Shown: in pieces, positions 1 to 64,000 of the stretch
How positions within the stretch are numbered: the first letter of the stretch is position 1
How the letters are laid out: each line of letters opens with the position of its first letter
Source of the DNA: Psammoneis japonica
Taxonomy: Eukaryota
Direction: 5' to 3'
Assembly: GCA_008632985.1 (NCBI GenBank)
Contig: QPGO01000300.1
Span: 1 to 64,000, forward strand
DNA length: 64,000 nucleotides
The notes under the pieces: generated by a model
What the model was told of the DNA's origin: nothing
The model's database searches: none
What the model saw: the letters and a program-made list of their open reading frames with translations, nothing else
Position numbers and translations under genes: made by a program

Positions 1-757
1 CAAATGTTGCCCAAGCCTTTGTGTGTGTGCACTGCTGTGAAAAAACAAAAAATCATGGGCAGTCAGGCACACTTTGAAACTTGTGCACTTGCTCTCAAGT
101 TCGCTGAGCTGCTTGTCATGCAAGTGGCAAAAAAGATGTGTTGTGGGCTCAAAATGATTTTGAGGTGCTGCGACAAATCAGTGGAATGGAATTTCCAACT
201 TGAGTGTGAGTGTTGACAACAATGTGAATGGTCTGTGACAGCACATGCACCTTGCTGATTGCAGCTGGCAATTGCCAGCAATGGCTTGTGACAGAGGACT
301 CCCACAGCAGGAGATGCACAAGGACAAAAAAGAGCGAAATGTCCCAGTGACCCACAGAGCATTGGCAAGGCCACTTGTCACTGCACCTGTTTTTTGCCAA
401 GCAGAGCAGCCTGATGTGCTCTGTGAATGACTGCTTGTGTGCCAAGCATGTGATCAGTTAGATGTGGCAAATCTGCACAAATGGAAAAATGGACATGAAT
501 GAGCAACATGGCTTTCTTGCCGGAAAGTGTCTCATCTTTGTGTTGCAACAGCTTGTCTTTCCTGAGCAAGTGCATGCATGAAATGAAAAGGGCATCTTTG
601 CAACTAAACACAAAAGTGGCTGAATTTTCTTTTGGGCAAGCAAGCGTGTTTATGCATTGAGATTTTCCTGGATTCTTTTGTGGCACAGAGAATTTCTTTT
701 GCTTTTCCTGGGTTTTGTGTTGTTTGTGTGCTGCCTGGTGAACACTCTCCCTTTTTC

Positions 758-3675
758 TCAACGGGGTGGATAACGAATTGCATTGGCAACCTCCTTTTGG
801 GCAAGGCTGTTCTGGCCGGGCAGCAGTTCATTTGAGAGTGGGCTTCGATGGTCTGCATGGAGGGCCGTCCCGATGTTGATTGCCCTGAAGGGGTCACGGG
901 AAGAATCAAACAACCCACTCCCAATCTGAGAATTCACATCAACAACCAAGTCAGAATGTGCTGACCAATCCTTGTCAAACTGCTTCACATAAGGCATGAT
1001 GTCGCCAAACATTTCGTCAATTATTTCTCCCACTTCGTTGCCCGCTCCCCAATCACTTGCACTGTCCACGTTCTCCTTCCTTATCGCTCGCTTGAATTCT
1101 AGAAAAATCCTCTCCAAAAAAATAATCTCCAACATGGCTGTACAACGCACTCAGTGGTATCTTCTTTCCTGTGAATGTGTTGCTTGGGTAATGGCTTTGC
1201 ATTTCTTTGACTAGAGAGGATCCCATGGCGAGATCAGGTCCACCGATTTCGAGGAGTTTCATAACATTTTCTTTGTATTTGACGCATCGTATTCGATCGT
1301 GTTCCATGTTATCCCAAACCTCTTGACCTTAACCTTGTATATGCCAAAGATGTAGTCGGCCTTACCCTCCATTTTGAAGATACCCCAAGTGGCATCACCT
1401 TTCATTTCGACCTTCTTTTTCTGTGCAATGATGGCTTTCATGTCATCCAACCCCTTGATGCCGCTGGTTTCTAATATCATAGATGTCCCCAGGTGGGGTG
1501 TACCGATGGTGATGATGTGGTCAATGTGGTTAAGAGGATTTCCGAGGTCCGTGGCCATAGCACTGTGGATTGCCCACCGAAGAGCAAGACCACCCTGGCT
1601 ATGGGCAACGCAGATTATTTTTGCATTCTGAATGCTTCGCCACCTTCCCACACCGTAATACTTGTCCAACACGTCAACGATCTTGTCAGACAACTCCAAC
1701 GCCATTGATACAACATCCATCCTTGGATCCGACGACTCAAAGAATTCCATGCCATTGTATTTATAGCCATCTCTTTCGCTAGACGGCCTTTCGGCTGTTG
1801 CCCTGTTTGCATAATTGAGATACGGATAGGCCTCAAACTCTCTTGCGACATGATCGGGTATGCTGCCTGTATCAGGTTTGAAATATACACCAAACCCGCG
1901 AACATCATGGCCCTTCCAGAACCTTTTGTCGGCTCCCCAACCATGTATAAAGAGCACGGGGTAAGGAAGGGACCCCGAATACTTTGCGAACGGATCTGGA
2001 GGAGAGTGTGAAGAGCCGAGAATGACGAGATCATCTCCGTTGACTGTATAGACATGTGCGTTATGGTACCACAAACCGCCCATTTGGTACAGGGAGCCGC
2101 CATATCCAAGTTCATAAGTGGCCGGTGGTAGGTCATATGAGTCAATCAATCGTGGCGAGGTGGGATCTCGCACGTCGTAGGCACTGATTTTTGCACTCCC
2201 ATCGTGATCTCCGACGTAAAGCACTTCGCCGTCGTCATCAAGTGCCATCCGATATGCAAGCGGGTGGTTGGAGACACGCCCAAGGATTTCTGGGTTCGTA
2301 TCTTTTACACCACGGGCAGCGTCATAGATAACAAATCCTTCGCCACGACCTGTGGCATTCAATGCTATCCCATAAATTCTATCATGATAGCCAAGAATCA
2401 TTTCGTGCGGAGGCGTAGTGCCGCTTGGTGGACTGAGTTTTCCAACCAGAGTAATGTTTGGTTTTTCGTAAGTGTATGTCGGATAATTTATCTTGTATAT
2501 GTCGACGGTGGCATCAACAGGCCCCTTGCGGGTCAACCAGTATAGATATTCATTGTAGCGAGAGAGAATCACCTCATCGGCACCCGAAGGTTTTACGGGG
2601 GGGCTACGATATTCCAGCCTGAGAGATGGCGGCTCATGCCATATGCTGTACATCGATAAGGATCGTCCGGAGTACAACAAGTAAGGAGCGTGATTTGACG
2701 GATGGGACGATATCAAGCCCTTGCGGCAATATGTTTCCGAGAAGCATTCTGGCGGCGTCACTGGATTTGCGGGATCAGAGATGTCAACCATGGTAATTTC
2801 TCCCCTTCGGTGTGCCGTCCACAAATTAGTGCCAGAAACCCAAATGTCCACAATGAAGTTCCCATGAAGAGTAGAGCACGTGTCGACTGACGCAACATAC
2901 CTTGGCGCAGCCGGATCCGAAATGTCGTAGATTAACACTTTTTTAGAAAAGTAACAGCCGAGATACGCGAAATGTCCTTGCACGTGTATATGCACTTCGC
3001 GGGGTGGGTATTCAGCCAGGTGCGGCAACCGCGTCCTGGACACCACGGACATTCCCGGGCCAAGACGTCGTGCTGCAACGGAAGGGTCCTGATGTCCTGA
3101 TCCCCGCTCCGCCTTGGCATCTGGGGCTTCGTATGGAGCAGCATGCTGACAGAGTCAAAGCGAAAACCGATATTTGATGAGGCAGAATTCAACGTGGATG
3201 TTGTGCAAATCTCGTTGATGAAAACTCACCGTCTCTGGATCGTTGGTATCATCTGTTACAAACGTGCCTCCGTGGACCCCATCTGATAGATGTTGAAGAC
3301 GCCGTGCACTTGCTCGTAGATGGAAGTCTCCAGTAGAAAGCGGCTTCTTCTCGGTTTCGTTGTTATCATATGCTCCGAAACCACCTCCTTGGACCCCATC
3401 TGATACCGGTACAGGTTGAAGACCACGTGAATTGGAATCGCTTGCTTCATGTGGCGTTGCCTACGAGGTTAAAGAAGGGGACAAGATCAGCTACATAATA
3501 CAAAGCTTTGTGTTCTTGGTTCATTGAACATTCGGTCGATACGAGATGTATAGGAGCTTACCTCGTCGTTCCACGGCTCCGTCCCAGCAAGAACCTCAAC
3601 AATCTCACAGGCTCGAAGGAGGACTGAAGCCGCAACGATCCAGCCGCACAACCGGTTTTGCTTAAAGAGTTTCAT
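758..3675 (-). pseudogene. Spliced, probably secreted protein: signal peptide + propeptide, LVIVD-type beta-propeller repeats, then a PGAP1/lipase-like alpha/beta hydrolase; two frameshifts near the 3' end
   Basis: Exon 1 3675-3562 (MKLFKQ...hydrophobic...WNDE), intron GTAAG..TAG 3561-3461, exon 2 3460-3230, intron GTGAGT..CAG 3229-3146, exon 3 in frame with ORF 1259..3052. Repeats IYDISDPAAP / MVDISDPANP / AYDVRDPTSP; hydrolase motifs PVLFIHGW, AHSQGG, IGTPHLG. The C-terminus continues in other frames (1053..1307 DLAMGSSLV; 758..1150 SDLVV..SQ, H). TpA is intact here. Confidence 0.8.
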
Positions 3676-4176
3676 TGTTTCACTTTTGTTGCTTGTGTTC
3701 TTTTCGCTTACTTATTTTGTGGTACCAGTGGATGGATTTCGCACCCTTTTCCCACAATTCCGCGAAAGCATCTGCCCCTTACCATAATAAATGTTGGCAA
3801 ACATTTATTGACAAAATTTCATTGTCGCCGATTCATTCTCTCGAAGACAATATGTTGAAAGCGCTTGTCGCGTTTTTTCTTATCGATTTCTTGACGCCTT
3901 TTCCAAAACAGAGTGTCCCTCGGTGTTCTATCTCAATTGTCCTCCCCCTGTCTATTTCTTCGAGTTCTCATCGCCAAACCACACCGGAGTCCCATTGGTT
4001 CTTGCTGCTTCATTTGGTCGACACAGTCATCGATGCAGGCTGCCGCGCGACTAAAAACCCGCGAGAGGTCTTTGCATGACATCTCGACAATAAATAATGT
4101 TAAAAAACAGTCATTTGTTAATTAAAAATAAATGACCGCACTCACTCAAAATCGAGTTTGTCAGGGAAAGACCAAT

Positions 4177-4351
4177 TGAATGAGATAGGCACATGTACTC
4201 TATGACCGAGTGTGCCCTCTCTGATGTATGTGTGTTAACTAACGCATTAGACACATGGGAAACCGTCAGGTTTGGGCTGCATCAGCGATGATGGGGTCTC
4301 TCCTCGGTTCTCCCACAACTTTTGTCAAGTCATCTCAAGCTAGATCTTGCA
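4177..4351 (+). repeat. 5' LTR (TG...CA)
   Basis: Aligns without gaps to 9659-9833 with 16 mismatches by manual alignment. Confidence 0.95.
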
Positions 4352-4655
4352 CTGTAATTGCAGTCATTGTTGCAGCTTGTTCACTGCATTGTCAGTTTTA
4401 TGACAATGCGAGGAGTGTCATCGAGAAGAGAGAAAATCTGTTTGCGAGCGCGTGCAGAAAATTTCATTCGAAGTCGATCAGAATCACCGTGCAATTGCAC
4501 TCGTGAAATCGGCGATTCAGAGCAGCGCTTGTTTGAACTCGAAGCTCGTGTTGCTGCTGTTGAGTTCGTTCTTGTTTGGTTGTCAATTGTTCTCGTTGTG
4601 TGGATCAATTGGGAGCACTTTGCTTCGTTCATCTTGTGGATTGTTGATTGTTTGA

Positions 4656-5927
4656 TTGCTGAAATTGTTCATCGCCATGCATCGAGAAGCCTTGGAGAAA
4701 GCATGCATTGAGCACAAGACCAAATTCGTGGATTCAGAATTGCAGGAAGTGAAGCTCACTCAAACCTTTGATGATGGTGCTAAACTTTCAAAAATGTGTC
4801 CTGTTTTCACAGGAGAGCATGGAATTGAATCATCATTGCACGTGGAGGACAGGTTCCGGAAGGTGGCAAGACAGCTCGACTGCAACACCAGACCAGAATT
4901 GTTTGATGCTTTCGAGGATTGCATTCAAGGTGCTGCGGAAGCGAAACGGCAGAATGTTGCCACGGGTGTCCAACAGAATCAACAGACGGTGGCTCAATTT
5001 AATCAGGCTGTCTCGGCTCATCATTTGTGCTGCGTGAAACCAACAGCTCGCGACACAATGAAGATGCATTTGCCCACTTGCAAAAAGCCTCACTCAGTGG
5101 AATTGGAAACTCATGTTGATTGCATGGAAACGTTGTTTTGTCACACCAGCCGTTTGCCTGGAACCGTTCCTGAACTTACAGAGCAGGAGCAGAAAAATGT
5201 CATCTTCTGCACCTTCCCTTTGACCTGGCAGCAGTCTTACATTCGTGCGGGCAAGAACCTTGTTGCGGACTTGATGGTGGATGTCCAAGCCCACATGAGC
5301 AATGAAAAGGCATTCGCCGATGGTCAGGACAACAAGAAGCGCAAGTCCAATGATGGCAATGGAGGGAACTCTAGTGACAAAAAGGGCAACCGAGACAAGA
5401 AGGGTGGCAAGGGCCAACCAAAGGCGAATGATCCGTGTCTGGTCCCATGGCACCATGGAAGGCATGCGCAGGGCCAGTGTTGTGACAATCCAAACAACCC
5501 CAACTGTCGTGGGCCTCCAAACCGTGGCGGTCGAGGTGGAGGCCGTGGTGGTGGAGGTCAAGGCGGAGGTCATTTCCAAGGAGGCCGTGGACAAGGCCGT
5601 GGAGGCGGTGGACACTTTGGTGGTCATGGCGACCAGAACCAAGGAGGTCGTGGCACCCACCACAACAACAACAACAACAATGGACACCAAAGTGACAATG
5701 GCAGCCAAGGTGGTGGTCAGCATCATTGCAATGAAAACAACAACCGTGGAGGCCAAGGTCAGGCTGACAGACATGCTGCTCAAGCAGACAACATGAACAA
5801 CAACAACCAGGCTCAAGAAGCTCCTCATGGTGACGTGCACCATTTCAACATGATCGGACGAGGCCCTCCGCGTTGTGGAGGTGTGGTGAGGTTTCAGCCA
5901 GATGGGCAGTTTCCTCGGCAGTTCTGA
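4656..5927 (+). pseudogene. gag: Gypsy gag-like ORF with Cys/His knuckle and RGG/N-rich tail
   Basis: 423-aa ORF after the 5' LTR; CLVPWHHGRHAQGQC knuckle-like motif followed by an RGG-rich low-complexity region. Confidence 0.75.
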
Positions 5928-5966
5928 GAAGAAGGAGCTGAATGCTCCGGAGCTGGGTGCTCCCAG

Positions 5967-8900
5967 TTGCCCATGAGAGAAGCATTTGTTGATGAAAATG
6001 ATTGTGTTTTGCCTGAAAGAAATGATGGATGTTTTGTTTTTGATTGTTTTAAAAATCCTGACGAATTGTCACCCATTGAATTTGAAAATGCTGCAGAAAA
6101 TTACATGAATGAAGAGGGGGACGTGTTCGATCAGGATGCGTTTGAGTGTCACATTCCTCTCCCCAAAATGAAATCGCAAGTCTCGCGCACTGCGTTGGTC
6201 CCATCTACACTGCTTGTTACAAAATTGATCCAGCGGCATGAGTCGAACAGTGTGATGCATGTCTTGTTTGACTCAGGTGGTTCTCACACTGTGATCTTGT
6301 CTCAAGTTTTACCTCAAGGAGCCGTGCCATCTGTTGACGAACATGGAGTCCGAGAGCTTTTCAAACCGCTGCAGGTCCTTTTCAGTCGGGTCGTTGGGCA
6401 GCCCTGAGCGACATTGCATTGCCGGAATTCCACAAGACCAGGAGGATTGACGGCTGTGTGGCTCACGTGTTCGATGCTCCGTGCGCGCATGATGTCATTT
6501 TGGGTCGAGATTTCTTGGGTGAGATTGGCCTCAATTTGAACCATGACACGAGAACACTGCATTGGTTGGACCACGCAATTCCAATGAAGGAGCCTCGTCA
6601 TTGGTCCAAGTCCTGCAATTGGCATGTTGCTTTGGACTGAATGGATGAATTTGACAAAGATTGTGAAGACGAGTCAGACTGCGGATGTGACGACGGATGC
6701 GACACCTGTGTGCTTGATGCTGAGCATGAAGCAACGGATCCGGCGGAGGCAGTTCGGAGTCTGGACCATCTCACAGAAGAACAAAAGAAGAAACTGCTGG
6801 CGGTGTTGGAAAAGCATTCGACCTTGTTTGACGGAACGTTGGGCCACTGTCCTCATGAAAAGGCACACCTTGAAGTGGATGAAAACGCTGTTCCTTGTCA
6901 CTCAAAACCGTTTCCTGTTGCTCGAGTCAATGAAGAAGCGTTCAAAAAGGAGTTGAAGCACTTGGTGAATCTTGGTGTGCTGCGACCATGTGGACCTGCG
7001 GAATGGGCAGCTGGTGCTTTTATTGCTCCGAAGAAGGACGGTCGAGTGCGATGGGTGTCAGATTTTCGGGAGCTCAATGAGGTCCTCAAGCAGAAAGTGC
7101 ATCCTTTGCCGGTCACTCAAGATGTGCTGCAACGAAGAGCGGGTTACAAATTCTTCACGAAATTGGATCTCACTGTGTTCTACTGCAATTTGGAGTTGGA
7201 CGATGAAAGCAAAGAGCTTGCCACGATTGCAACTCCCTGCGGAAAGTTTCAGTGTTGTCGCATGGCTGTGGGATTGAAGCCAGCTCCAGACATTGCTCAG
7301 TCCATTGTTGAAAAGATTCTTCATGGTTTGGATGTCGAAACTTGTGTTGATGATGTTGGAGCATTTGATGCTGACTTTGACTGCCATCTCTCTCGCATTG
7401 ACAAGGTGCTGCATCATCTCGAAGAGAATGGTTTGAAAGCCAATCCGTTGAAATGCGAGTGGTGTGTTCAAGAAACCGATTTCTCAGGGCATTGGCTTGC
7501 TCCGACTGGTGTCAAACCATGGAAGAAAAAGGTCGAAGCGATTCTACGAATGCAACCTCCACGGGACACTGCTCAACTCCGATCATTTCTTGGTGCAGTG
7601 ACTCATTGTTGCAATGTGTGGCCTCGCCGTTCTCACCCACTTGCACCTCTGGCTGAATTGACAGGCAAAAGTCAGTTCCAATGGACGGAATCATGTCAGA
7701 AAGCGTTCGATGAAATGAAAGCAGCAATCATGGCAGAAGCATTGATGGCCCACCCTGACCACAACCTGCCATTCCATGTTCACACCGATGCATCAGACCA
7801 CCAGATGGGTGCCGCCATCATTCAAGATGGTGAGCCGGTGGCACATTGGTCTGAAAAGCTTTCGACGGCTCAACGAAACCATTCGACAATGGAAAAAGAA
7901 CTGCTGGCCGTTGTCATGTGCTTCAAAGAATTTCGCTCAATGCCACTCGGTGCTGATGTCACTGTTCATGCTGATCACAAAAATCTCACCTTTCGCACTT
8001 TGAATGCACAGCGCGTCCTTTGTTGGTGCCTGTTCCTCGAAGATTTTGCGCCTGCGTTTAAGTGTGTCGAAGGCAAGGATGACGTGCTCGCTGATTGTTT
8101 TTCTCGTCCACCACGCATGGATCCGCCTTCGGAGGGGAAGAGCCTTGGGCCAAGTGGCAAACGCAAAGGCAGCAAATGCAAAGGAAAAATTGTTCATTTT
8201 GAAAAGTTGGATTCCAAGGCCCAGGCCGAGGAAGATTTGGAGTTAGGCGCTTGCAGGTTCAAGTGTTGCCGTGCTCCTGTTGCTCCTTCTGATGAGTCTC
8301 ACGCCACCTTTTCCTCTCTGCTCGACGAGCCTGAATTGTTTGAATGCTTTTTGAATTGTCCGACACTGGACGAGATGCCGAACCCCACTGAGATGTCAAG
8401 GATCCAACAGTTTCAGTTCGAAGACCTCCAACTGAACCAGCAAAGACAACAAAATCCGCAGCAGTTTGTGGTCAAGATTGTGAAGCATTGTCCCCTGATT
8501 TGTCATCGTTTGCAATTGAATAATCCGCCTGGAGCCTGGAAGATTTGCACCCCCACTGCATTGTTGCGGGATGTCATTGCATGGCATCATCGCGCATTGG
8601 GCCATTGTGGAGTCGCACGACTGCACAAAAGTGTTCGGACTCACATGCATCATCCTGCATTGCGGCGACGTTGCAACGAATTTGTCTGCGATGTGTGTCA
8701 ACAATTTAAACAACCAGGCCCTGGATGTGGAGAGTTGCCTCAATGTCAAGCGCCTTTAGCTCCGTGGACGGAAGTGGCAGTTGGTCTCATTGGACCGTGG
8801 AAGATCCCGATTCAAGATCAAGAGATTGAATTCAGCGCTCTCACTTGCGTTGATGCTGTCACTGGATTGACTGAACTCGCACGCATTGACAACAAAGCTT

Positions 8901-9550
8901 CTCAACATGTGACTGACAAGTTTTGCAACCTTTGGTTGGCTCGTTGTCCCAGACCAAATCGATGCATCCATGACAATGGTGGAGAATTCATTGGTTGGGA
9001 ATTCCAAATGTTGCTGAATCAAGCGGGTGTTGCGGATGCTCCGACGATGTCTCGAAATCCTGCAGCCAACTCCATTTGTGAACAAATGCACCAGACGGCA
9101 GCCAATGTCTTGCGTGCTGTGGTTGTTGCCAACCCACCTTTAAATGTTCAACAGGCCGAGCAGATTGTGGACGATGCCCTTGCCACAGCCTCTCATGCTT
9201 TGCGATGCTCCCACTCAAGGTCTGCGGGTGTTTCAAGTGGAGCTCTGGTGTTTCAACGTGATGTGATTTTGGACCTGCCCATGGTTTCTGATCTCGCAAT
9301 GATGCAAGCCAACCGACAAGTGTTGATTGACGAGAACCTGCGATGACAAAATGCGAAGCGACATTCCTGTGATTGTCTGGTTGGTCAAGATGTGTCAATC
9401 AAGTCGGTGGATCCTTCGAAGTTGGAAGAACGAGCTTGTGGTCCGTTTCGAATTGCACAAGTCCATGCCAACGGGACTGTTTCGGTGCTGCGAGCACCGC
9501 ACGTTGTCGAGTGAATCAACATTCGCCGTGTGGTGCCGCATCGGAGTTGA
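5967..9550 (+). pseudogene. pol: Gypsy pol: aspartic protease, reverse transcriptase, RNase H, integrase with GPF motif
   Basis: Protease LFDSGGSHT and VILGRDFL; RT KKDGRVRWVSDFR and CVDD (for YxDD); RNase H HTDASDHQMG and NHSTMEKELLA; integrase HH-CC finger, HDNGGEF, NSICE; KLEERACGPF after 9346. Frameshifts and stops are present. Confidence 0.92.
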
Positions 9551-9646
9551 GGGTTTCTTCCCAACGTCTGGGTTCCCTTCTCCGTGTGTGGTGGGTTTTG
9601 AATTTTAGTCGAGTGGCTCCAATGGTGCGCGTGTTCCTTGCACCAT

Positions 9647-9658
9647 GGAGGGGAAGAG
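9647..9658 (+). other. Polypurine tract of the Gypsy element
   Basis: GGAGGGGAAGAG immediately 5' of the 3' LTR. Confidence 0.85.
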
Positions 9659-9833
9659 TGAATGAGATGGGCACATGTGCTCTATGACCGAGTGTGCCCT
9701 CTCTGACACATGCACATTAACTGACGCATTGGACATGTGGGAAACCCTCAGGTTTGGGCTGCATCAGCGATGATGGGGTCTCTCCTCGGTTCTCCCACAA
9801 CTTTTGTCAAGTCATCTCAAGCCAGATCTTGCG
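9659..9833 (+). repeat. 3' LTR
   Basis: Copy of 4177-4351, followed by TSD CCAAT. Confidence 0.95.
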
Positions 9834-10849
9834 CCAATGGCCCCCGCCGATTGATCCAATCGACTGCAATTTGAGTGGATTGCGAAATGTTCAGAATCCC
9901 TCTGTTGAGTGTGTTGAAAGTGATCTGTCCAACAATCTGTGCAAATGGAGAATTGCTCCACCACATGCTCACAATTTCTTGTCAGTCCACAGCTCTGATG
10001 GCCAGCAGCCAGGCAACTCCTCAACATGATGCCTCCTCTGTGCTGAGCAAAGCAACAAAAGAGACAAGCAGACATCATGGCATTTTCTCTGACACCTGCC
10101 CAAGCCATCAAAGGCACTCTTGACTTTGCAAAGAAGGCTTGCAGAGCCACCCACACAACAAGACAGTCATGTGGGAGAGTTTTTTCAGATCCTCAACACT
10201 CTCAAAGACAGAGCTGCCAACAGTGGCTGGAATGAAGAAGGGGTGGGATCTTGGTTGTTCCTGACAATCCAGCTGAAGTCATGTCTGACACTGCCGGCTC
10301 TAATTTTTTGACACACTGCAGTCAAACCAAGGTGGCCATCATCCTCGAGTGCAAGTGTGCATGCATCAACCAGCCAACGAGGCCTGCACAAGACACAACA
10401 ATGACGCTGCGCCACCTTCTTGTGCAAGTGCACTTTCTGAAGAAGGAAAAACCAGAACTCAGGTCTGAGAAAAGCAGCACAAAAATCTCCAACGCAACAA
10501 GACACAACTGTTTTGAAGCCTTCTGCTGAAGGCAACAACTTGCTTTTCAAGGGTTTCTGCATGGAGCCCCACGTGTTTTTTGCACCAAGAACCCACCGCC
10601 ATGACAGCTCCCCCACTGCCACAGGCCGGCCCTGCCAGCAATCCTTGGCATGATCCCTCCCCTGCTTGGGACACCAGTTTCCCATCAACTCCTTCCAGAA
10701 ACTGATCCGGAGAGTCCAGCAACTCTGAGCTCAGGGAGATCATCCTCCATTTTGAGCTCGCTGGGTGGGGCTCTTTGTGACATTGGGCTTGCAGAATTTT
10801 GTGCACAAGCTCTGCAGCAAAATCATCAAGCAATGAATGCACTGGTGAC

Positions 10850-11040
10850 TGCCAGCAGAAAAAATGCAGTTGTGTGAATGCATCTCCTCCTTTGTGCACT
10901 TGAAGTGCGCCATGAACAGTCTGCCCCTGGGCACACTCCACAGATGCCAAATGACACACCCAGCCCATTTTCATTCTCATGAACGTTGAAAATGGAGAGC
11001 CTTTGGCTTTGCAACACAAGGTGTGTGAAGCAACTTTGCA
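10850..11040 (+). repeat. Degenerate dispersed repeat; inverted homologue at ~33410-33580
   Basis: Shared segment acacacccagcccattttcatt...gttgaaaatgga.agcctttggctttgcaa; ORF track shows ENENGLGV and MKMESLWLC at both loci on opposite strands. Confidence 0.7.
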
Positions 11041-11248
11041 GAAGAAAATATGTGGAATTGCACATGCATGACAATGGGGGTCATTTGAAAATGTTGCAAA
11101 AGTCACAACTGACATTTTGCATGAGGAAAAACACCAAATTGCATGGAAATGTGTGCAATGTCATGCAAGAGGGTGATTGGAGCTGCTGACTTTTTGGGAG
11201 CTCAACTGAAATGTCATCTGAGCAAAGGTGTTTTGATTTGCATGTGGT

Positions 11249-11803
11249 GACGTGTTCCAGCCGCACGTGAACCAAATCGTGCACAGAAACGACATTTGCG
11301 CGATTTTTGCGCGGTCCCTAACGTACGATCGAACTTTCACCACCAAAAGTATAGATTTATCCAAATATAAATGTTTTGCAACACTAACAAGACTCGTGTG
11401 AGTGTTGCAATATCATTGTTATTGTGCTATCTATGTTTTTCATTGCGTTAAAAGATTCGTAACACAACGGATGATTTTCGGCGAAAATATTGCCGTTATT
11501 TGGATGTTACCTAAACATATCTTTCTACGATGCTACTTGGTAGGTTTTCTACCTACAAAAATATCTCAGTATAAATCTACGGACGTACAATCAGTATTGA
11601 GTCTACTGAGGAAGTTTATGATACATATCCCATGAGGATTTGAATACCCCTCAAAAAACTATTTAAATGTTCATACTCTAGAAGCCTATAAAAGTCAATC
11701 TGTCTAAGTATTTTTATTAAAATGCTCTATACACTAGAACATACATAAATTATATTCAAAATCCGATTGTCGTTTTGTGCGTCACCTGGGACTGGAACAC
11801 GCC
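11249..11803 (+). mobile_element. MITE family 1, copy A (555 bp, TpA intact)
   Basis: TIR GACGTGTTCCAG...CTGGAACACGCC, 4-bp TSD TGGT on both sides, AT-rich, inverted homologue at 23130-23684. Confidence 0.9.
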
Positions 11804-12093
11804 TGGTGAAGAGCAACGCCTTTGATCAGATGACATTTCAGTTGATTTCCTGAGGAGTTGACATTCGTGCATGGATGGGCAGACAGACTGACAACAATTG
11901 TTTCTGCGCCATCCGCAAATTTCAACGACACAGTCTTGAACATGTGAGTTTCACACCTCAACACATGAATTTGTGGTTTCCATTTAAAATGGATGACCAT
12001 TGAATTTGGTCTTGTTTGCTTGCCAAACATCTTTTGCAAATTTTGTTCATGACAAATGGTGTTGAATGAATTGGCCCTTCAACCACTGGACTT

Positions 12094-12413
12094 GAGCAAA
12101 TCTCCATGGGTGGAGATTTGCTTGCTTGCATCACAAATGTGGCAAATGAAGCAACTTCAGACACACACAACATTTTGTTTGCGCGATTTTGTTCTGGAGC
12201 GCGCATTCATCGAAAATCTGGAGGCACCCTTTTTGCAATTTAGAAAGTTCAATGTCGCCTTTTAACACCGGGTTTTTTGCAAGCTTCATCTGTGAACAGA
12301 GAGAAATTAAATCTCAACCTTTGACAATGGAGGTTGTCATGAATTGCTGTCACAAACAGAGCAATGACACCACACCCTGGGAGCAAATCTCCGCCGGTGG
12401 AGATTTGCTCCCA
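12094..12413. repeat. Two related hairpin palindromes (12094-12122 and 12378-12413)
   Basis: AGCAAATCTCCA-tggg-TGGAGATTTGCT and TGGGAGCAAATCTCC-gccggt-GGAGATTTGCTCCCA. Confidence 0.8.
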
Positions 12414-12587
12414 ACAAGCAAATGCACGTGGCATGCTTTGCACAGATTGTGCACGACATGACATTTTAACACTGTGTTCATTGCATTGTCACAAAAGTGC
12501 GAGACACGTCACACATCCCCAAGTGGAGCAACCCCTGGTGATTGAAGGGTCAAGTTGTGAGCAAACTCAAATGCTTTTGCTCAAGCA

Positions 12588-19226: not shown

Positions 19227-19272
19227 ACAACACAAACAAACGCGCAAACGTGCAAGCTAAAAAAATGGCACC

Positions 19273-46646: not shown

Positions 46647-46898
46647 GACTTGAGTGTCGATTGCTGTTCTGGCTCATGTGTGGCTCTTTCTACCCTGCTT
46701 TTTAACAATGCACAGTCGTGACGGTGGCACCAAAATCCTGTGGCTGTGCATGACCAGGCCTGCAAATGCCGGACAGCTGTCCTTCAACGAGCTTTGTTCC
46801 AACAGTGGGGTGCAGGCCATGGCAAACACTCAGCATCGAAGAGATGAGGCTGGGTGTCAAGTTGCAAAAAACCTGTGCACGAATGCCAGCGTTGAGGC

Positions 46899-52719: not shown

Positions 52720-53880
52720 GGGCTCCAACCGCCGCCATTGCTAGCAGCTATACTCAAATACAGGATACAGCCTCCCACTGCCACCAGTGCTAGTGGGAGC
52801 CACATACAGTCTCTAACCGCCGCCAGCGCTAGCAGCTGTGCAGGATACAGCCTCCCACTGCCACCAGCGCCAGCATCATACAGGGGAACCCACCGCCACC
52901 AGATAAAAAGGATAGTAGTGCACAGGCTCCAACCGCCGCCATTGCTAGCAGCTATACAGGATGCAGCCTCCCACTGCCACCAGTGCCAGCATCATACAGG
53001 GGCACCAACCGCCACCAGATAAAAAAAGATTGTGGTGCACAGGCTCCAACCGCCGCCAGTGCTAGTGGTTATACAGGATACAGCCTCCCACTGCCACCAG
53101 TGCTGCAGCAGTAGCACACAGGCTCCTACTGCCACCAGTGCTAGCAGCAAAAGGCTCCAACCGCCATAAGGCTCCAACCGCCTCGATTGCTACCAGTGCA
53201 CAGGCTCCAACCGCCGCTAGTGCTAGCAAATATACAGGATACAGGCTCACACTGCCACCAGTGCTACAGCAGTAGCACACAGGCTACTACTGCCACCAGT
53301 TCTAGCAGCAAAAGGCTCCAACTGCCTCAAGTGCCAGTAGTGTACATGATCCCACCGCCACCAGTGCTACAGCAGTAGCGATGTATACAGGCTCCCACTG
53401 CAACCACTGGCCAGTAGCAAAAAAGCTCCAACCACCACCAGTGCCAGCAGCATACAGAAGCATCCACCACCACCACATAATAAGGCTCCAACCGCCTCGA
53501 TTGCTACCAGTACACAGGCTCCAACCGCCGCTAGTGCTAGCAAATATACAGGGTGCAGGCTCACACCGCCACCAGTGCTACAGCAGCAGCACACAGGCTA
53601 CTACTGCCACCAATTCTAGCAGCAAAAGGCTCCAACTGCCTCAAGTGCCAGTAGTATACATGATCCCACCGCCATCAGTGCTACAGTAGTAGCGATATAC
53701 AGGCTCCCACTGCCCACTGCAACCACTGGCTAGTGGCAAAAAAGCTCTAACCACCACCAGTGCCAGCATCATACAGGGCTGCCAACCACCACCAGATAAA
53801 AAGGACAGTAGTACACAGGCTCCAACCGCCGCCTGTGCAAAAGCAGTAAAAGGCTCCTGCCGCCGCCAGTGCTACCACAT
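52720..53880. repeat. Complex C/A-rich minisatellite with a ~314-bp higher-order duplication; TpA intact
   Basis: Recurrent CAGGCTCCAACCGCC, CCACCAGTGCTA and TATACAGGATACAG modules; ATAAGGCTCCAACCGCCTCGATTGCTACC at 53166 and 53480. Confidence 0.85.
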
Positions 53881-54611
53881 TCAGCCCTGCCATAATAGTC
53901 CAGTCCATAAATCATAAATTCATGTTGAAAACAACACCTTCAGAGACGCCACCAATGAGACAGATCTCTTTCAAACTTTCCAACACACATTGTCACATGT
54001 AGAAGCATATACTGTGGTATGGCTACGGGAACGTACTGAAAACGCCGCCGCCGCCGCATCATCATCGTGAAAGTGCCGTTTGCGTTGGCCTCACGCAAAT
54101 TTGAATGAGCTGATTGGTGCAACTGCCATTTCAGTATCGCCCCACGTAACATTACGTACGTGGAATCCTACATATGTTTGGTAAACGCATGGAAGGACAG
54201 GCCGAGTGCGACCATTTTTTCAAATCTCCATAGTCCATTGTTTTCACCGTGTGGGTCGCCTTGCCAAAAAAAGCTCAATTTGCAGTGCTGTTTTGCAGTG
54301 TGGCTTTGTGAATGTTGACAAACACAACTGCAAAAAGCGCGCTTTGAATGAAGCATTTTGGCAAAATGGCACATCACATGATTTTGTCATGTGCTTTGTC
54401 ACTGAATTCTGAAAAATGTGTGTGAAAAACACCCACATCATTTGACAATGTGCAAAATTTTTTGACCGCATCGAAAGGTGAGGAAAGAACAATCTTTGCC
54501 ATCAAATCATCCATGTTGACATTGCTCATGTCTGGCTCTTTTTTTGCCTTGGCCTTTGCTCTAGATCCCTTTTGGTTTGCACTTGTCACCACACAACACA
54601 AGAGGGAAAAC

Positions 54612-58661: not shown

Positions 58662-61600
58662 TCAAGAACTGTGCAGCAGGTCAGAACAAAACTGCCAACT
58701 CATCTTGAGATGTGATCCCATCATGTGATGTGACACATCAAGAATGGAGTTGTCCGACTGGTTTTGTGGATCCCAATCTGATGTGGGAATGCTGTCCAAC
58801 AAGGAAAGCATGAGGTCTGAGGAGTCTAAAGAATCCAGCGTCTTTAAGTCCATGCCATCTGATGCACTGGCCTGGGTCCACGAGTGCCCCAGACAATTGA
58901 GGGTGACCTGAGAAGCATGATGATTGGAAAGAGATGAACATCTGCAATGCATTTGGAGCTTCTTGCAGCTTTTCCAAGGCTGCGCAGAACACATTTCCAG
59001 CATCCGCAACCCCATCAAACTAAAAGCGTGCAGAAAAGACGGACGTGAACCAACCAACAGTCCTGGCAAGGTCAAGCCCAGAGGCGATGATGCCCGATTT
59101 GCGGCCATGACCTTCAACGATGATGCAGACATCTGTGCTTTCACCAGATGGCTCCACCAGACTCTGGGCAAGTGCCAAGACCACTGGATCTTTGACAGCA
59201 ATGGTCAACAGCAGCCCTTCGATGTTTGCACATTCAACCAAAAATGATGTCCCATCCTTTCTGGGCTCAACACTTGCACGCCCATCTTGCAAAGCTCTCA
59301 AAGGCAACTTAAAGGGAGGTGCCACTGTGTGGCACCAGTGCGCAAGCTTGTTTGACAAGGAAGATGATTTTGAGCACTTCTGCAGTGCAGATGTCCACTG
59401 TGCAAAGGAGTGTGATTTTGCCGGGAGGCTCGCTGGTCCCTGGCGTCAGTTGGGAGCACAGGCCAAATTGAGGTCATCCACAATCACTCTCCAGCTGACC
59501 TCATCAATGACAAGGTGATGAACAACAGTCAACAGCAGGGGTGGATCAGGTGATGGCCTTCTGAATGGTGCTGCTGCTGCCATTGTTGGCCCATTCTCCA
59601 AGTCACGCAAAGATTGATCTCGTTCAATTTCGCGTTCAATTTCAATCAGCAGCCCATCAAATTTTAACATTTGAATTGTCTTCAATGTGGAATGCGAGAA
59701 ATCTTGATGCAATTTCATCAGTGTGCTGGATCTGCCTGGCATGACGATTCACTGTTTCATGAGAGAAGCGCAAAGTGTCATGATGGATGATGAGTGACAG
59801 GAGTGCAGCCTGGAGAGCTGCCTCATCAACATCATTCCAAACCAGAAACATTGTTGACTGGTTGCAGTGCAAAGGTGCTGGAAACTGCTTGCCAAAAAAC
59901 CATCTGAGGATTGGGGTCAGGTGAACCAGCCAATTTTGGCCCTTTGTTCAGGTGGTCCAAATGAAGCCCAAAAGAGGCTGCAGAAAGCAAAAAGGAAGCA
60001 AGCTTCTCCACTGTCTTAAATTCCATCACAGAAATCACATTGAGACAGTGCTCAAGGCTCTGGGCAAGGGCAGCCAGCTGAAAGCTCAGGAGGGAGTCTC
60101 CTCCCAGCACAAAGAAACTGTCCTGCATGTCCACCCATGGAAGGTCCAGCACTTTGCAAAACATCGCTGCCAGCCTGACTTCCTCAGTCATCCTGGGTTC
60201 CAGAAAATCCTTGGCAGATCTTTGGAATGCAGTGACAGCGTTGCCACCCGGATGATCTCTGTGAACTGATTCCAGCTCATCATGCTTTCCAATGATGCTC
60301 GATTCTGTGCAAGGGTTGCACCCCGCAGGATGCTTTCAAGTTGATCAATCGCCTGCCCAACCGTTGACCAATCAAACAGGTCTGTGGCAAACTTGGCTTC
60401 AACGAGCAAGTGGTCACCAGATCCCAGACTGAACCTGATTGAAAAAAACAAACATCGCTGTCTTGGTCTCCTTCACTTCAAGCTCTGCCACTTTCAGCCC
60501 ATCCAACACCAGGCCTGGAGCAACATTTTCATGTGTTCGTCAACAGCCAGCATTGTTTGAACAAGCAGGGTCTGTCCCCGCAATCTTGAATGAACTGGCC
60601 TTTTCACAAGATCCTCCAAGGCAATGTCTTGATGATCAAATGTCATGACAGTTGCCCGCTTCACCTTTGCAACAAGTTCCGAAAATGTGAGATTCGCGCC
60701 AAGTTGGAATTTGATTGGCAGCATGTTGACAAACATGCCAATGAGGGACTCTGTTTTTGGGTGAGATTGTCCTGATGACAGGACACCTGCAATGATTTCT
60801 TTTGGCCGGTGAGGTGATGGAGCAAAATGAAATGTGCAGAGAGCAAGATGGAGAAAGATGTTGTTGCATGTGTGGCTGCAGCTGCACAGAGTGCAGACAC
60901 AATCCCATGGAACTGTTTCATGAAGCTCCCACCTTCACCCGAGTGGAGCACAGGTCTGAGCCTGTCAGTGGGAAGGCACAGAGGTTTGGGATTCTCCCCA
61001 AGCTCCTCCCTCCAGCAATCTGGCAGTTCTTGGCAGGCCGCACTCCACCAAAACTTTGCCTCCCAAAGGCAGAAGTTGCCAAATTGAATTGTGAGAAGTG
61101 GCAAGCGTTGATTTGCACAGGCAGCTGACAGCTCCATGCACAAAATGTCCCATGACAGACCATCAATGGCAATGTGGTGTGCAGTGATGACAAGCTGCAA
61201 GCGTTGCTCTTCAAGCCAAACAAGCAGTGCTTGGATGGGCAAAGTGTTTGAATCTTTGAGGTGGAAAGGAGCTGAAGCGATGTCTGTCATTGCTTTCTTC
61301 ATGTGCAGCTGCCTGTCACCATCTTCCACATTGCACACATCAAGCTGACGCAAGAGAAACAAAAAATCATCTTGGACAACTTGAAAGGGTTCTTTTGTAG
61401 AATGCCCACAAGAAGAGCGGAGGATCTCATGGCAACTGATGACAGTTCGGAGTGTGTTTTCAAGGCAACAATGATTCACAACATCATTTCTCAGATCAAA
61501 AACTGCAGATGCATGGCAGATCGGTGAACTGGGATCAAGCAGATGAAGGAAATGCATTTGTGCTTGTGCCAAGGAGAGAGGAAGCTGCTTTCCAACTCTT

Positions 61601-63550
61601 TGGCTGCATGGGCAGACCTCAATGTCCACGTTGTCTGTTGCTCCAGCATCCACGATGCGTGACAAAACATCACTTAGAGTGGGTTCTGCAAAAAACTCAG
61701 TGAACCGGACCCGTGTCACAAATTCTTGTCTCACTTTACCGAGGAGCCTCACGGCTGAAAGAGATTGACCTCCAAGGCTGAAAAAGTCAGCATCCTGCCC
61801 AACATCTTGCGGCTCGAGATCCAGCACATCAGCAAAAATCTGTGGCAGTTTCTTGCACAGCGGTGACTGATGATTCTTTGGATCATGAGACCCGACCGTC
61901 GAAGCCCAGGAGTGATCTGGGAGGCGAGATCTGTCCGTTTTGCCAGAGGAGTCGACCCGGCATGCAGCAATCTTGACAAATGCAGCAGGGACCATGTGAT
62001 CTGGAAGAGAAGATGCCAGATGGGATTGCAGACTGCATGCATCTGGCCTTGTGCCCATTCTCTCTGGGACCAACTGTGCACAAAGAAATGGAATGCCTTC
62101 CTTTTGGTGGCAAAGAGCGACAGCACAAGCTCAAACATCCCTCCTTTTGAGCAACTTTGTTTCAATTTCACTAAGCTCAATCCGAAACCCTTGCAGTTTC
62201 ACCTGTGTGTCCAGCCTTCTGAGATGCTCAATGCTGCCATTGGGAAGCCAGCGGCAGCGGTCTCCGGTCTTGCAGATGACTGGCATTTCGGCTGAAACAG
62301 AGAATCTGTTTTTGACGAATTTCTCTGCCGCAAGGTCTGGCAAGTTGAGATGCCCACGGGCCACCTGTGGGCCCGCTGCACAGAGCTTGCCCGGAACACT
62401 GGGTTTCACAGGTTCACCATCAGAATCAAGGATGTAAAGCTTTGTGCTGCCAGGATTCGAAAACCCAATTGACTTTGGATGTTTCATGTCAGGAGTGCAT
62501 TGGATGGATGTCACAGTGACCGTTGCTTTGGCAGGTCCACATTGATTGTTGATGAGACAGCAAGGTGCTGTGCCCATTCTCTGATCAACAGGGGAGGGAC
62601 AGCCTCACCACCAATGGCAGCCATGTGCAAATTGGGAACCTCCTGAGGTGACACTGTGCCAAGCTGTGTTGGAGTGCACCCAAGGGTTGTGACATTGCAT
62701 GTGCAAATAAACTTGCCAAAGCCTTCAAGGGCCGTCCACTTGTCACAAAGAACCGCCATCCCACCAAATGCCCACACCATCCAAATGTCAAAAACAGATG
62801 AATCAAAGGTCAGCTGCCATGATTTGGATGACCCGCTTGTTGGGCCCAGGGTCAAGGACAGCCCGCATCAAATCAATGCAATGGGCCACAGCCAAGTTTG
62901 GAACCACAAAACCCTTGGGCTTGCTGGCAGTGCCCGATGTAAAAATCACACAAGCAAGTTTGTTCCCTGTGACCATTTCCTCTGTCTCTGCTGTTGGTGA
63001 ATCATGGTGGAGGATGAGATCATTGTTGTTGACCACACACAGCGGCTCAATGCCCAGCTTGGAAAACTGCTTGGAACAGGCCTTGCTGCACATGACCAAT
63101 GATGGCAAAATGTCTTCCAGCACGGTTTGGATGCGAGCATTGGGAAGTCGCAAGCCAAGAGGGACGCAGGCCCCACTGGCTTTTAGAACGGCCAGTGCAG
63201 GTGCCAAACAGCCAATTGTCCATTCAGCAGCCAAGCTGACGAGAGAGGATTCGGGTCCGATGCCGCAATGCAATTGCAGCCTGGCAGCCAACAAGTCAGC
63301 AAGCACAATCAAGTTTTCTGCAGGAGAGCTTCTGCTTTCCCGTTGCATCTTCAAGGGCTGCATTGTCGGGCACTTGTCTTGCTGTCCGTGCAAAGATCTC
63401 TCTGAGGGTGGCAAGACCACGATGCGGACGAATCTCTCTGCCGAGCTCCAACACATTCACACCTTCTTCCTTGTCATGCAGTGGCAGTGGTGCCATCTCT
63501 GCACTGTGCCAAAGCAGCTTTTGTGCATGCGTTGCAGCATCTTCCATCAA
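58662..63550 (-). pseudogene. Non-ribosomal peptide synthetase, A-T-C-T-E architecture, decayed
   Basis: A domain: ACVIFTSGTASKPKG, FDSSVFDIW, NQCGP, GPQVARGH, KTGDR, QVKLQGFRIELSEIE. T domains: FFSLGGQSL, FFVLGGDSL. C domain: PLSLAQ, HHIAIDGLS. E domain: HHDTLR, HHLVIDEVSW, EGHGR, RTVGWFTS, LNCLG. Confidence 0.88.
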
Positions 63551-63566
63551 AGGACGATGGTGTGTG

Positions 63567-63568
<2 letters not shown>

Positions 63569-63609
<41 letters not shown>
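63569..63609. repeat. Compound microsatellite (TG)n(AG)n
   Basis: Directly visible. Confidence 0.95.
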
Positions 63610-63616
<7 letters not shown>

Positions 63617-64000
63617 ACAAAGATGGTTTGGCTTGAGAGAAGGAGCTGCAGGTTGTGATGAGAGGTGGGTTGGCCATCGGCCATCCCAACAACATCACAC
63701 TGTGCACTGCAAGTGACGTTGGTGTTTGCAACATTCATTTTTATGTCCATCATGGTGCACCACACAAAAACACACCAACGCCACATGCCGCTTGCAATGT
63801 CAAAACAAACAATGTCAAAGACATTGTCAGGAACTGACAACAACTGTTTCAGGAAACACTTGTCAACATCAACAATGCAAAGCCAACTGGGAATGCTCTG
63901 ACTCTTTTTGCTGAACATTGGAGGTGAGTTGAAGCTGACAAGAGTGGGAAAGATCTGGGGAAGTCAGCTGGTTGTCAACCTCACTTTTGTTCTGCTGGCT

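Follow-up and report, generated by a model that had tools for sequence, protein, structure and literature searches.

Near-complete loss of TpA from transposon-rich DNA of Psammoneis japonica suggests in-place TpA to TpG/CpA hypermutation

Results

The window, a single stretch of 64,000 nt, holds a spliced host gene, LTR and LINE retrotransposons, two copies of a MITE-like element, a C5 DNA methyltransferase ORF, a tandem-repeat array, and a nonribosomal peptide synthetase (NRPS) remnant, laid out as follows:

1–749, no strand: TpA-depleted, CpG-poor flank; positions 1–629 hold 2 TA (observed/expected ratio, o/e, 0.04) at a CpG o/e of 0.12
750–4400, minus strand: island 1, host gene, expressed and spliced, with an LVIVD repeat and a DUF676-type esterase, together with its 5′ flank; normal TpA
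1262–3145, minus strand: host gene exon
3146–3229, minus strand: host gene intron, 84 nt, GT..AG (minus strand reads GTGAGT...CAG), skipped by an X2 contig
3230–3459, minus strand: host gene exon
4177–9833, plus strand: Ty3/gypsy LTR retrotransposon with TpA-erased interior and spared 5′ LTR (Pfam RVT_1, RT_RNaseH, Integrase_H2C2)
4177–4351 and 9659–9833, plus strand: gypsy LTRs, a repeat pair with an apparent 5-bp target duplication, CCAAT
4656–5927, plus strand: gypsy gag-like ORF
6641–9346, plus strand: gypsy Pol
11243–11803, plus strand: island 2, MITE-like element copy A with terminal inverted repeats, unmutated, 52 TA, o/e 0.93
19261–27736, plus strand: non-LTR (LINE) retrotransposon, TpA-erased, split by MITE copy B
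19261–21666, plus strand: LINE ORF1-like
21755–23131, plus strand: LINE endonuclease (Exo_endo_phos, E 1.7e-07)
23132–23684, minus strand: MITE copy B, lying within the LINE; conversion partial when aligned pairwise with copy A
24272–27736, plus strand: LINE ORF2, RT-containing part, a 1154-aa ORF
27427–28497, minus strand: reverse-transcriptase remnant, GHVDD replacing the Y-DD box (sub-threshold RVT_1 match, E 0.17)
35231–36328, minus strand: bacterial/phage-type C5 DNA methyltransferase ORF in depleted DNA (PF00145, E 3.8e-44)
39992–49759, plus strand: second LTR-bounded element, TpA-erased, with 240-nt repeats at 39992–40231 and 49520–49759
52270–54240, no strand: island 3, tandem-repeat array with periods 116/161/314, normal TpA
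58665–63456, minus strand: NRPS remnant, frame-broken and TpA-erased, its Pfam pieces (AMP-binding, PP-binding, Condensation) falling in different frames

Pfam scans covered three sets of 19, 117, and 20 ORFs, in which the families above threshold were retroelement, DNMT, NRPS, and host-gene families only. Within these sets, the scans returned no viral hallmark gene, capsid included, and no deaminase family above threshold in the window, where SNAD4 was matched below threshold (E 0.19); the ORFs of the second LTR element matched no Pfam family. The 1154-aa LINE ORF resembles EEP+RT proteins of ~1900 aa with up to 39% identity, the Atlas neighbours of the methyltransferase are bacterial and phage DNMT clusters, and relatives of the transposable elements were found in metagenomes and MMETSP. 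Once its intron is spliced out, the host gene has an open frame over 704 aa with matches to LVIVD (E 5.4e-12) and DUF676 (E 1.6e-06). A search of 5.8 billion clusters revealed no close relative, the best match having 36% identity over 12% of the query.

With o/e computed from base composition, the whole window contains 549 TA (TpA o/e 0.13), next to CpA at 1.56, TpG at 1.65, and CpG at 0.56. Three islands were delimited (750–4400, 11243–11803, and 52270–54240; 6,183 nt in total), which hold 305 TA at an o/e of 0.74. The remaining 57,816 nt contain 244 TpA against 3,706 expected (o/e 0.07), bearing out the initial annotation, which had described TpA as nearly absent outside three islands. In this depleted DNA, TpG and CpA stand at an o/e of 1.6–1.7, and TG (n = 5,877) and CA (n = 5,952) counts indicate that the strands are about equally affected. 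For TpC, the o/e is 1.05 outside the islands and 0.96 inside them, and CpG o/e varies from 0.07 to 0.9 between bins. Residual TA in depleted DNA lies mostly within TAA/TTA, a bias that could reflect new mutations instead of resistance. In terms of sequence products, A>G at the A of TpA and T>C at its T are identical.

TpA conversion destroys Tyr codons and removes TAA/TAG stops. Ten long ORFs in depleted DNA contain 0–7 Tyr apiece; the island 1 host gene has 43 Tyr in 631 aa. Tyr is absent from the 489-aa NRPS piece and from the C5 methyltransferase ORF, in which motifs I, IV (PCQ), VI (ENV), and VIII are still legible. All motifs for which the initial annotation had noted Cys or His in place of Tyr were located in the sequence: CVDD (7343–7354, plus strand), HTDAS (7781–7795, plus), NHST (7877–7888, plus), GHVDD (28081–28095, minus), NCLG (58887–58898, minus), and CGP (62533–62541, minus, inside an AMP-binding frame). 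The 901-aa Pol, to which about two Tyr had been ascribed, holds exactly 2 (0.2%), while the 120 Pol relatives listed keep normal Tyr, each with at least 2.6%.

At 21 alignment columns with Tyr in at least 80% of 40 relatives, Pol reads Tyr twice, His ten times, Cys eight times, and Phe once; 18 of the 21 conserved Tyr are thus replaced by His or Cys. Analogously, LINE ORF2 shows 6 Cys, 3 His, 1 Phe, and no Tyr at 10 conserved Tyr columns (30 relatives). Pooling both proteins yields 13 Tyr>His and 14 Tyr>Cys. None of these 31 conserved Tyr is replaced by Arg, and TA has therefore never become CG in Pol or LINE. Further changes in Pol against its relatives, namely Thr>Ala (6), Ile>Val (5), and Met>Val (4), are first-position A>G, as TpA across codon boundaries would give. 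Arg>Cys/Gln/His at 7 of 24 conserved Arg is of the CpG-decay type.

The two MITE copies reveal the direction of change at the nucleotide level. Copy A is a recent insertion in old depleted DNA: its flanks have a TA o/e of 0.02–0.04, and a contig from a public run (X1; contigs built from exact 31-letter words) joins 11242 to 11804, the empty site for this copy. At the 52 TA sites of copy A, copy B reads CA at 23, TG at 15, TA at 12, and other dinucleotides at 2, so that 38 sites (73%) are converted and none has become CG (0/52). In the reverse direction, 12 of the 13 TA in copy B are also TA in copy A. From A to B, 42 of 69 substitutions are A>G/T>C and 4 are G>A/C>T, and 38 of the 42 sit at TpA. 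Together with the Tyr columns, the MITE pair supports the polarity put forward in the initial annotation, TA>TG or TA>CA, that is, A>G at 5′-TA on either strand. Conversion rises from 0% in copy A over 73% in copy B to ~93% or more in older elements, with near saturation in the gypsy interior (o/e 0.07) and the LINE (1-kb bins 0.02–0.24). This dose series hints at a build-up over time.

The two LTRs of one element are identical at integration. In the gypsy pair, 14 of 15 substitutions are TpA-derived, with only 1 other substitution in 174 nt; in the pair of the second element, 16 of 25 are TpA-derived and 3 CpG-derived. Each pair includes four double differences, with TG in one LTR and CA in the other. 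Since the LTRs start identical and differ at TpA-derived sites, the mutations occurred after integration.

Sparing follows location. The gypsy 5′ LTR adjoining the host gene retains a TA o/e of 0.67, compared with 0.07 in the interior and 0.20 in its 3′ twin; targeting thus goes by position, not by sequence. As the initial annotation had proposed, transposon-rich DNA is targeted regionally; the host gene is spared, with a TA o/e of 0.07 over the depleted 57.8 kb versus 0.76 in the host CDS and 0.50 in its 5′ flank (3460–4176). Because this flank is non-coding, sparing is not solely selection on coding sequence. Within the host transcript, the far 3′ portion (630–989) is depleted (o/e 0.09), and therefore transcription as such gives no protection.

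X1 contigs over the erased stretches 10428–10935, 12628–13529, and 13841–15984 have a word depth of 50–59, and the host-gene contig has 47. The three erased-stretch contigs are TpA-poor as well, with 0, 5, and 8 differences from the window, respectively. With depth taken as copy number, we infer that the erased stretches are at single-copy depth, so repeats are not required. X1 may be the assembly's own sample and hence no independent individual; its library type is unrecorded.

Discussion

The initial annotation knew of no description of such a process. One exists: a preprint on the alga Bigelowiella natans (Mettrop et al, bioRxiv, 2026; 10.64898/2026.01.13.699255), in its available text, gives the first report of a genome-defence-like process in which integrated viruses undergo TpA>TpG/CpA hypermutation de novo. 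Two integrated viral regions yielded 231 SNMs; 230 were A>G or T>C, all at TpA; they arose de novo in mutation-accumulation lines, episodically between lines, at a rate of ~6e-7 per site per generation. RT and endonuclease-RT domains are over-represented among TpA-depleted CDS, and the signature reaches DDE genes. The authors name an ADAT2-like candidate, hypothesise an ADAT/TadA-type DNA deaminase, cite engineered TadA and amphioxus ADAT2 as active on DNA, and likewise draw the analogy to RIP.

The window resembles B. natans in several respects. Changes are almost exclusively A>G/T>C, confined to TpA, and yield TpG and CpA; they are regional, in B. natans striking silent foreign DNA in an otherwise normal genome; they occur in place in single-copy DNA without repeats, copy number in the window being taken from depth; and TpA loss is accompanied by CpA/TpG gain in the long term. 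In contrast, the targets observed in B. natans are NCLDV and virophage inserts that are still TpA-rich (rho 0.45; TpA 3.3% and 9.2% of dinucleotides), and its genome-wide clusters comprise three or more 1-kb windows with rho of at most 0.43 (10.64898/2026.01.13.699255, available text), whereas here ~58 kb stand near saturation at an o/e of 0.07. The targets in the window are LTR and LINE retrotransposons, a MITE, and an NRPS remnant, with no viral hallmark found in the Pfam scans. By analogy, we consider it very probable that a real TpA>TpG/CpA process of the B. natans kind has acted here, and the window would represent a further, far more saturated instance of it on the targets just named.

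We propose that an A:T>G:C transition at 5′-TA on either strand would act in silent mobile or foreign DNA, leaving the expressed neighbour gene and its flank untouched. The polarity, TpA specificity, action in place, and regional sparing of this scheme are observed in the window. Mutation would follow integration and accumulate with residence time, TpA conversion being an estimated ~40- to 260-fold faster than other substitutions. Targeting may follow a chromatin-like domain, not sequence or copy number: a putative TadA/ADAT2-type deaminase, recruited to silenced chromatin, would turn adenine into inosine in the 5′-TA context, and inosine would then be read as G at replication. The 5′-TA rule fits the natural substrate of TadA/ADAT2-ADAT3, an A preceded by U (U33-A34 in tRNA). 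We know of no natural enzyme that has been shown biochemically to edit chromosomal DNA by domain. Adenine deamination is the chemistry that we favour, and we give it an even chance; as a compromise, the whole statement seems to us rather probable, and including the enzyme step, with the odds multiplied, it falls just short of even. Tentatively, such an enzyme may edit the 5′-TA adenine in chromosomal dsDNA, guided by chromatin domains, as the main permanent killer of transposons, saturating and reaching beyond viral inserts. If true, this would be a repeat-independent mirror image of RIP in function and a new class of natural DNA base editor, which may occur in more protists than one species.

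RIP itself consists of C>T mainly at CpA, creates TpA, lowers GC, and needs duplicated sequence. The window, in contrast, destroys TpA and raises GC; mutation extends to stretches at single-copy depth, and identical LTRs fare differently by position. With the polarity opposite (TA lost, CA/TG gained), fungal RIP is rejected as the cause, and the MITE pair and the dinucleotide counts uphold the earlier statement that RIP runs the other way. The likeness lies in dinucleotide-specific transition hypermutation in place, missense-riddled transposons, and genome defence (PMC7296669, available text). APOBEC3 similarly provides deaminase-driven retroelement hypermutation with a dinucleotide context; it differs in acting on minus-strand cDNA, where C>U conversion accompanies reverse transcription and gives strand-biased G>A before integration (PMC4866542, available text), whereas the changes in the window are A:T>G:C, strand-symmetric, and post-integration.

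Among alternatives to adenine deamination, an unlikely one keeps the regional in-place process, but the T of TpA would be enzymatically modified in silenced DNA (for example by a TET/JBP-type dioxygenase to 5hmU/5fU), mispair with G, and yield T>C. Over two strands, the resulting CpA and TpG are indistinguishable from the products of A>G at TpA, and oxidised thymines mispair with G; 5hmU, however, pairs mostly as T, and we know of no thymine-modifying enzyme or modification of the TET/JBP kind in this lineage. Moreover, a TC>CC signature is absent, as the TpC ratios of depleted DNA and islands (1.05 vs 0.96) indicate. A precedent is a dinoflagellate TET/JBP enzyme that makes 5hmU, marking and silencing transposable elements, and in older work 5hmU replaces T preferentially in TA and TC (PMC11572971, available text). 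The likeness is thus an enzyme-made pyrimidine modification concentrated on repeats. It is described there as an epigenetic mark, not as a mutator, the window lacks the TC signature, and X1 contigs total only ~141 Mb, well under the 1–250 Gbp given for most dinoflagellates (PMC11453091, available text). The authors of the B. natans preprint favour a deaminase (10.64898/2026.01.13.699255).

It is very improbable that TA is really present and that a modified TpA base in heterochromatin, or standing inosine, was misread when native-DNA long reads were basecalled or polished. The effect is regional, as base modification would give, and the platforms of the assembly and of X1 are unrecorded; yet ~50x contigs of exact 31-letter words reproduce the TpA-poor sequence with 0–8 differences per 0.5–2 kb. 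A per-strand error also predicts TG versus CA by strand and some CG/TA in the consensus, whereas each site has settled on either TG or CA, with the two interleaved, and TA>CG occurs at 0/52 MITE sites and 0/31 Tyr. Furthermore, in the B. natans mutation-accumulation lines, mutations of this type were identified with Illumina reads (10.64898/2026.01.13.699255).

Equally improbable is A-to-I editing of retroelement RNA by an ADAR- or ADAT-type enzyme with 5′-U preference, fixed by reverse transcription and reintegration. The targets are mostly retrotransposons, and a 5′-U preference of ADAR is quoted in the B. natans preprint (10.64898/2026.01.13.699255). However, nearly all differences between the LTRs of a single insertion fall at TpA-derived sites; the changes are therefore post-integration, and this comparison effectively refutes editing at the RNA level. 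The strand symmetry (10 His vs 8 Cys in Pol, and the near-equal TG and CA counts) and the involvement of the DNA-type MITE, the NRPS remnant, and stretches at single-copy depth also oppose it, as do the B. natans mutations, which appeared in situ within a viral insert present as a single copy (10.64898/2026.01.13.699255).

Finally, ordinary forces, whether decay of methylated CpG, RNA-level selection against UpA, or GC-biased gene conversion, can practically be dismissed, contradicted as they are by the LTR and MITE comparisons: CpG decay is present, as the Arg changes and the CpG-poor bins attest, and adds to the TG/CA excess, but none of these forces takes non-coding or pseudogenic TpA to 0.07 within the lifetime of an LTR pair with 1 other substitution per 174 nt, and young elements with a CpG o/e of ~0.8 are already TpA-erased. 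The contrast with 5mC decay drawn in the initial annotation is supported by elements at a CpG o/e of 0.74 whose TpA is already down to 0.07. Unable to remove TpA, 5mC deamination is rejected as the cause of TpA hypermutation; it is a second, separate, and slower signature here (CpG o/e 0.53).

TpA is nearly absent outside three islands

TpA is depleted across the whole window (observed/expected ratio, o/e, 0.13; dinucleotide count, n = 549), and CpA and TpG stand at o/e 1.56 and 1.65, CpG at 0.56. Three islands of ordinary TpA content were delimited from a 250-nt TpA density map:

about 750-4400, minus strand (host gene), island 1
11243-11803, island 2, young MITE copy
52270-54240, island 3, tandem array

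Together, the islands (6,183 nt) hold 305 TpA (o/e 0.74). The remaining 57,816 nt contain 244 TpA versus 3,706 expected from base composition (o/e 0.07), a loss of about 93% over tens of kilobases, with TG at o/e 1.69 and CA at 1.59. These counts confirm the near-absence of TpA outside three islands described in the initial annotation, and all Cys- or His-for-Tyr motifs it named are found in the window sequence. They are listed here with the NRPS remnant, which is what is left of a decayed gene lying in the erased domain:

7343-7354, plus strand, CVDD
7781-7795, plus strand, HTDAS
7877-7888, plus strand, NHST
28081-28095, minus strand, GHVDD
58887-58898, minus strand, NCLG
62533-62541, minus strand, CGP, in an AMP-binding frame
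58665-63456, minus strand, NRPS remnant with AMP-binding, PP-binding and Condensation, then again PP-binding and Condensation, in differing frames

On both strands of the depleted DNA, the stop triplets TAA (236) and TAG (119) sum to 355, versus 2,776 TGA. This scarcity probably favours long open frames: in the window, 178 frames run for 110 codons or more without a stop, and many of these overlap on both strands. Such frames in TpA-erased DNA could mislead gene finders, and dinucleotide tools tuned to RIP would overlook the signature. Searches of the window for RNA genes returned no Rfam match and no tRNA gene.

TA changes to TG or CA

The direction of change can be read from two paralogous MITE-like elements and from the protein relatives of two retrotransposon ORFs:

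11249-11801, MITE copy A, in island 11243-11803, 52 TA
23132-23684, minus strand (inverted relative to copy A), MITE copy B
6641-9346, gypsy Pol
24272-27736, LINE ORF2 piece (1154 aa), the RT half of a ~1900-aa endonuclease-RT protein family

At the 52 TA sites of copy A, copy B reads CA (23), TG (15), TA (12) or other (2), and 12 of the 13 sites with TA in copy B are also TA in copy A. Within the pair, 38 of 42 A>G/T>C differences fall at TpA. Gypsy Pol was aligned with the best 40 of 847 relatives, and columns with Tyr in at least 80% of the aligned relatives were taken as conserved. Only two of 21 such columns are kept in Pol, while ten read His, eight Cys, and one Phe. LINE ORF2, for which 30 of 59 relatives were used, keeps none of its 10 conserved Tyr columns (Cys 6, His 3, Phe 1). 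Nearly all conserved Tyr codons examined in the transposon proteins are destroyed.

Tyr makes up 0.2% of Pol versus at least 2.6% in all 120 relatives listed. The normal Tyr content of these relatives implies that the Cys and His states are not ancestral to the Pol family. Pol also differs from its relatives by six Thr>Ala, five Ile>Val, and four Met>Val replacements, all first-position A>G changes, which may stem from TpA at codon boundaries. TA to CG changes are absent from the MITE, Pol, and LINE ORF2 comparisons, as expected where a single hit abolishes the target. All three comparisons, which are independent of one another, bear out the proposed polarity, TA>TG/CA.

Changes arose in place, at an estimated high rate

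Two elements with paired terminal repeats bear on timing:

4177-9833, gypsy element with 174-nt LTRs and an apparent CCAAT target duplication
39992-49759, 9.8-kb element with 240-nt direct repeats at its two ends

The LTRs of one element are identical on insertion. Between the gypsy LTRs, 14 of the 15 differing positions are TpA-derived, and four show TG in one LTR versus CA in its twin. The second pair (39992-40231 versus 49520-49759) has 25 differences, 16 of them TpA-derived. Therefore, these changes arose in place. By an estimate that draws on few background substitutions, the rate of change at TpA steps would exceed that of the remaining positions ~40- to 260-fold.

MITE copy A is untouched, with a TpA o/e of 0.93, although the old DNA that surrounds it stands at only 0.02-0.04. 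A contig of X1, a public sequencing run, connects 11242 to 11804 and thereby represents the empty site of this copy. Copy B is 73% converted, and the gypsy interior has reached o/e 0.07, so that the three form a dose series. The summed word depth of the MITE family in X1 amounts to ~8,700-13,900, versus ~50 for unique DNA; together with the empty-site contig, this suggests that the family has been active recently. When 24 nt of the MITE were used to scan contigs from metagenomes, no locus with further copies emerged.

Erasure follows position

The borders of erasure track position, not sequence. The gypsy 5′ LTR, which abuts island 1, has a TpA o/e of 0.67, compared with 0.20 for its twin 3′ LTR. 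Island 1 contains a host gene:

1262-3459, minus strand, host gene with LVIVD repeat and DUF676-type esterase

A contig of X2, another sequencing run, omits 3146-3229 (GTGAGT...CAG on the minus strand), whereas the DNA-run contig reads through it, which shows that the gene is expressed and its transcript spliced. After joining across 3146-3229, its frame is open for 704 aa. Stretches without X2 coverage were not counted as evidence of silence. A search of 5.8 billion protein clusters found nothing close to this protein: the top match is 36% identical and covers 12% of the query. This is a weak argument against the organism being the annotated B. natans reference.

The non-coding 5′ flank of the gene (3460-4176) retains TpA at o/e 0.50; sparing is thus not merely purifying selection on coding sequence. 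In the distal 3′ part of its transcript (630-989), TpA falls to o/e 0.09; transcription per se is thus not protective. Word depth is 50-59 in contigs that cover three erased stretches (10428-10935, 12628-13529, and 13841-15984) and 47 in the host-gene contig. Taking depth as copy number, we infer that copy number is irrelevant to erasure. Island 3 (52270-54240) lacks a long ORF; its array has periods of 116, 161, and 314, is C-rich on the plus strand, and reaches a TpA o/e of 1.2.

Residual TA and its context

Most residual TA in the depleted DNA (177 of 244) lies within TAA/TTA, and ATAC and ATAT are almost absent. Across paralogue pairs, TTAA shows no conversions versus nine retained copies. 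In the MITE pair, targets followed by A at +1 changed in 3 of 19 cases, compared with 34 of 79 where C, G, or T follows. These counts hint that TAA/TTA contexts may resist conversion; no motif past TpA is claimed. Comparison of product 4-mers with the small islands is too noisy to part -2 from +1 effects. The best-supported 40 of 1,514 run-contig differences, which are not a representative sample, comprise 8 TpA-type, 13 CpG-type, and 19 others.

Candidate chemistry and alternatives

The window displays a real, striking, and regionally targeted TpA-erasing hypermutation, and we consider it highly probable that a genuine TpA-erasing process is at work. The chemistry we favour is enzyme-driven A>I deamination at 5′-TA steps in silenced chromatin, with either DNA strand as substrate; provided that the process is real, we give it about an even chance.

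The leading alternative places the chemistry on the thymine: 5hmU or 5fU made at TpA by a TET/JBP enzyme, for example, would give products identical to those of A>I at TpA. Dinoflagellates provide a precedent, in that transposons carry such a mark there (PMC11572971), but no accompanying TpC signature is found in the window. Ordinary CpG decay is present but separate: conserved Arg of Pol is replaced by Cys, Gln, or His at 7 of 24 sites, which shows CpG decay distinct from the TpA changes.

Strand-wise misreading of a modified base is an unlikely source of the signal. Contigs of X1, built from exact 31-letter words at ~50x depth, match TpA-erased single-depth stretches with 0, 5, and 8 differences, X1 possibly being the assembled sample. 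Moreover, misreading would split reads between TG and CA and leave some CG in the consensus, whereas TG-fixed and CA-fixed sites are interleaved here and CG is never observed. The LTR pairs exclude an origin through RNA editing and subsequent retrotransposition.

Relation to Bigelowiella natans

The initial annotation's idea of a "reverse-RIP" TpA>TpG/CpA genome defence is right in kind but not new to the literature. Full-text searches for other reports of this mutation type matched only a 2026 preprint (Mettrop et al, bioRxiv 10.64898/2026.01.13.699255, April 2026 version), which describes the same type in Bigelowiella natans. There, 231 of 302 nuclear SNMs from 15 mutation-accumulation lines fall in two viral inserts (NCLDV, 186 kb; virophage, 25 kb); 230 of these 231 are A>G or T>C, and every one of the 230 lies at a TpA. 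The TpA mutation rate is ~6e-7 per site per generation, and only 11 of the 15 lines are affected. The preprint further reports 324 TpA-poor CDS enriched in DDE endonuclease, endonuclease-RT, and RT domains, and 124 clusters in which three or more 1-kb windows have a rho TpA ≤0.43. Mettrop et al propose an ADAT2-like DNA adenine deaminase and an analogy to RIP.

The NCLDV insert has a reported rho of 0.45, compared with o/e 0.07 over ~58 kb here. De novo targets in the described B. natans data are viral inserts, whereas the sequences hit in the window are retrotransposons, a MITE, and the NRPS remnant; the preprint's supplementary lists of TpA-poor CDS and clusters may already include similar TE targets. 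Pfam scans of the window ORFs found no viral hallmark genes. A single earlier description of the kind exists, from 2026; the window is a new and more extreme case of it and shows the outcome of TpA hypermutation run to completion. It adds saturation, clear retrotransposon, MITE, and NRPS-remnant targets, and, from LTR twins and a nested insertion, evidence of post-integration domain targeting. Saturation and positional borders offer concrete starting points in the search for the targeting signal and for the enzyme, possibly a natural editor of adenine in DNA.

Further elements in erased DNA

Most long ORFs of the window have no family in Pfam scans, including several ORFs of 280-480 aa in the 9.8-kb element, none of which has one. 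The sole N of the window (49760) directly follows the 3′ repeat of this element. Two further ORFs lie in erased DNA:

35231-36328, minus strand, C5 DNA methyltransferase (DNMT) ORF, bacterial/phage-type (PF00145, E 3.8e-44)
30897-32792, minus strand, ORF of 632 aa

The DNMT ORF contains no Tyr, and its motifs I, IV (PCQ), VI (ENV), and VIII are readable; an Atlas look-up returned bacterial and phage DNMT clusters only. It lies in a run of same-strand (minus) ORFs (28682-37821) upstream of an RT remnant (27427-28497, minus strand) and so might be retrotransposon-borne. In this respect, it may resemble the retrotransposon-borne DNMTs reported for dinoflagellates and charophytes (PMC5890265). The 632-aa ORF is likewise devoid of Tyr. 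Its 64 relatives are weak (best E 2.1e-26, 27% identity), and none of the seven scanned has an above-threshold Pfam family. It carries an 81-nt tandem duplication at 31930-32092.
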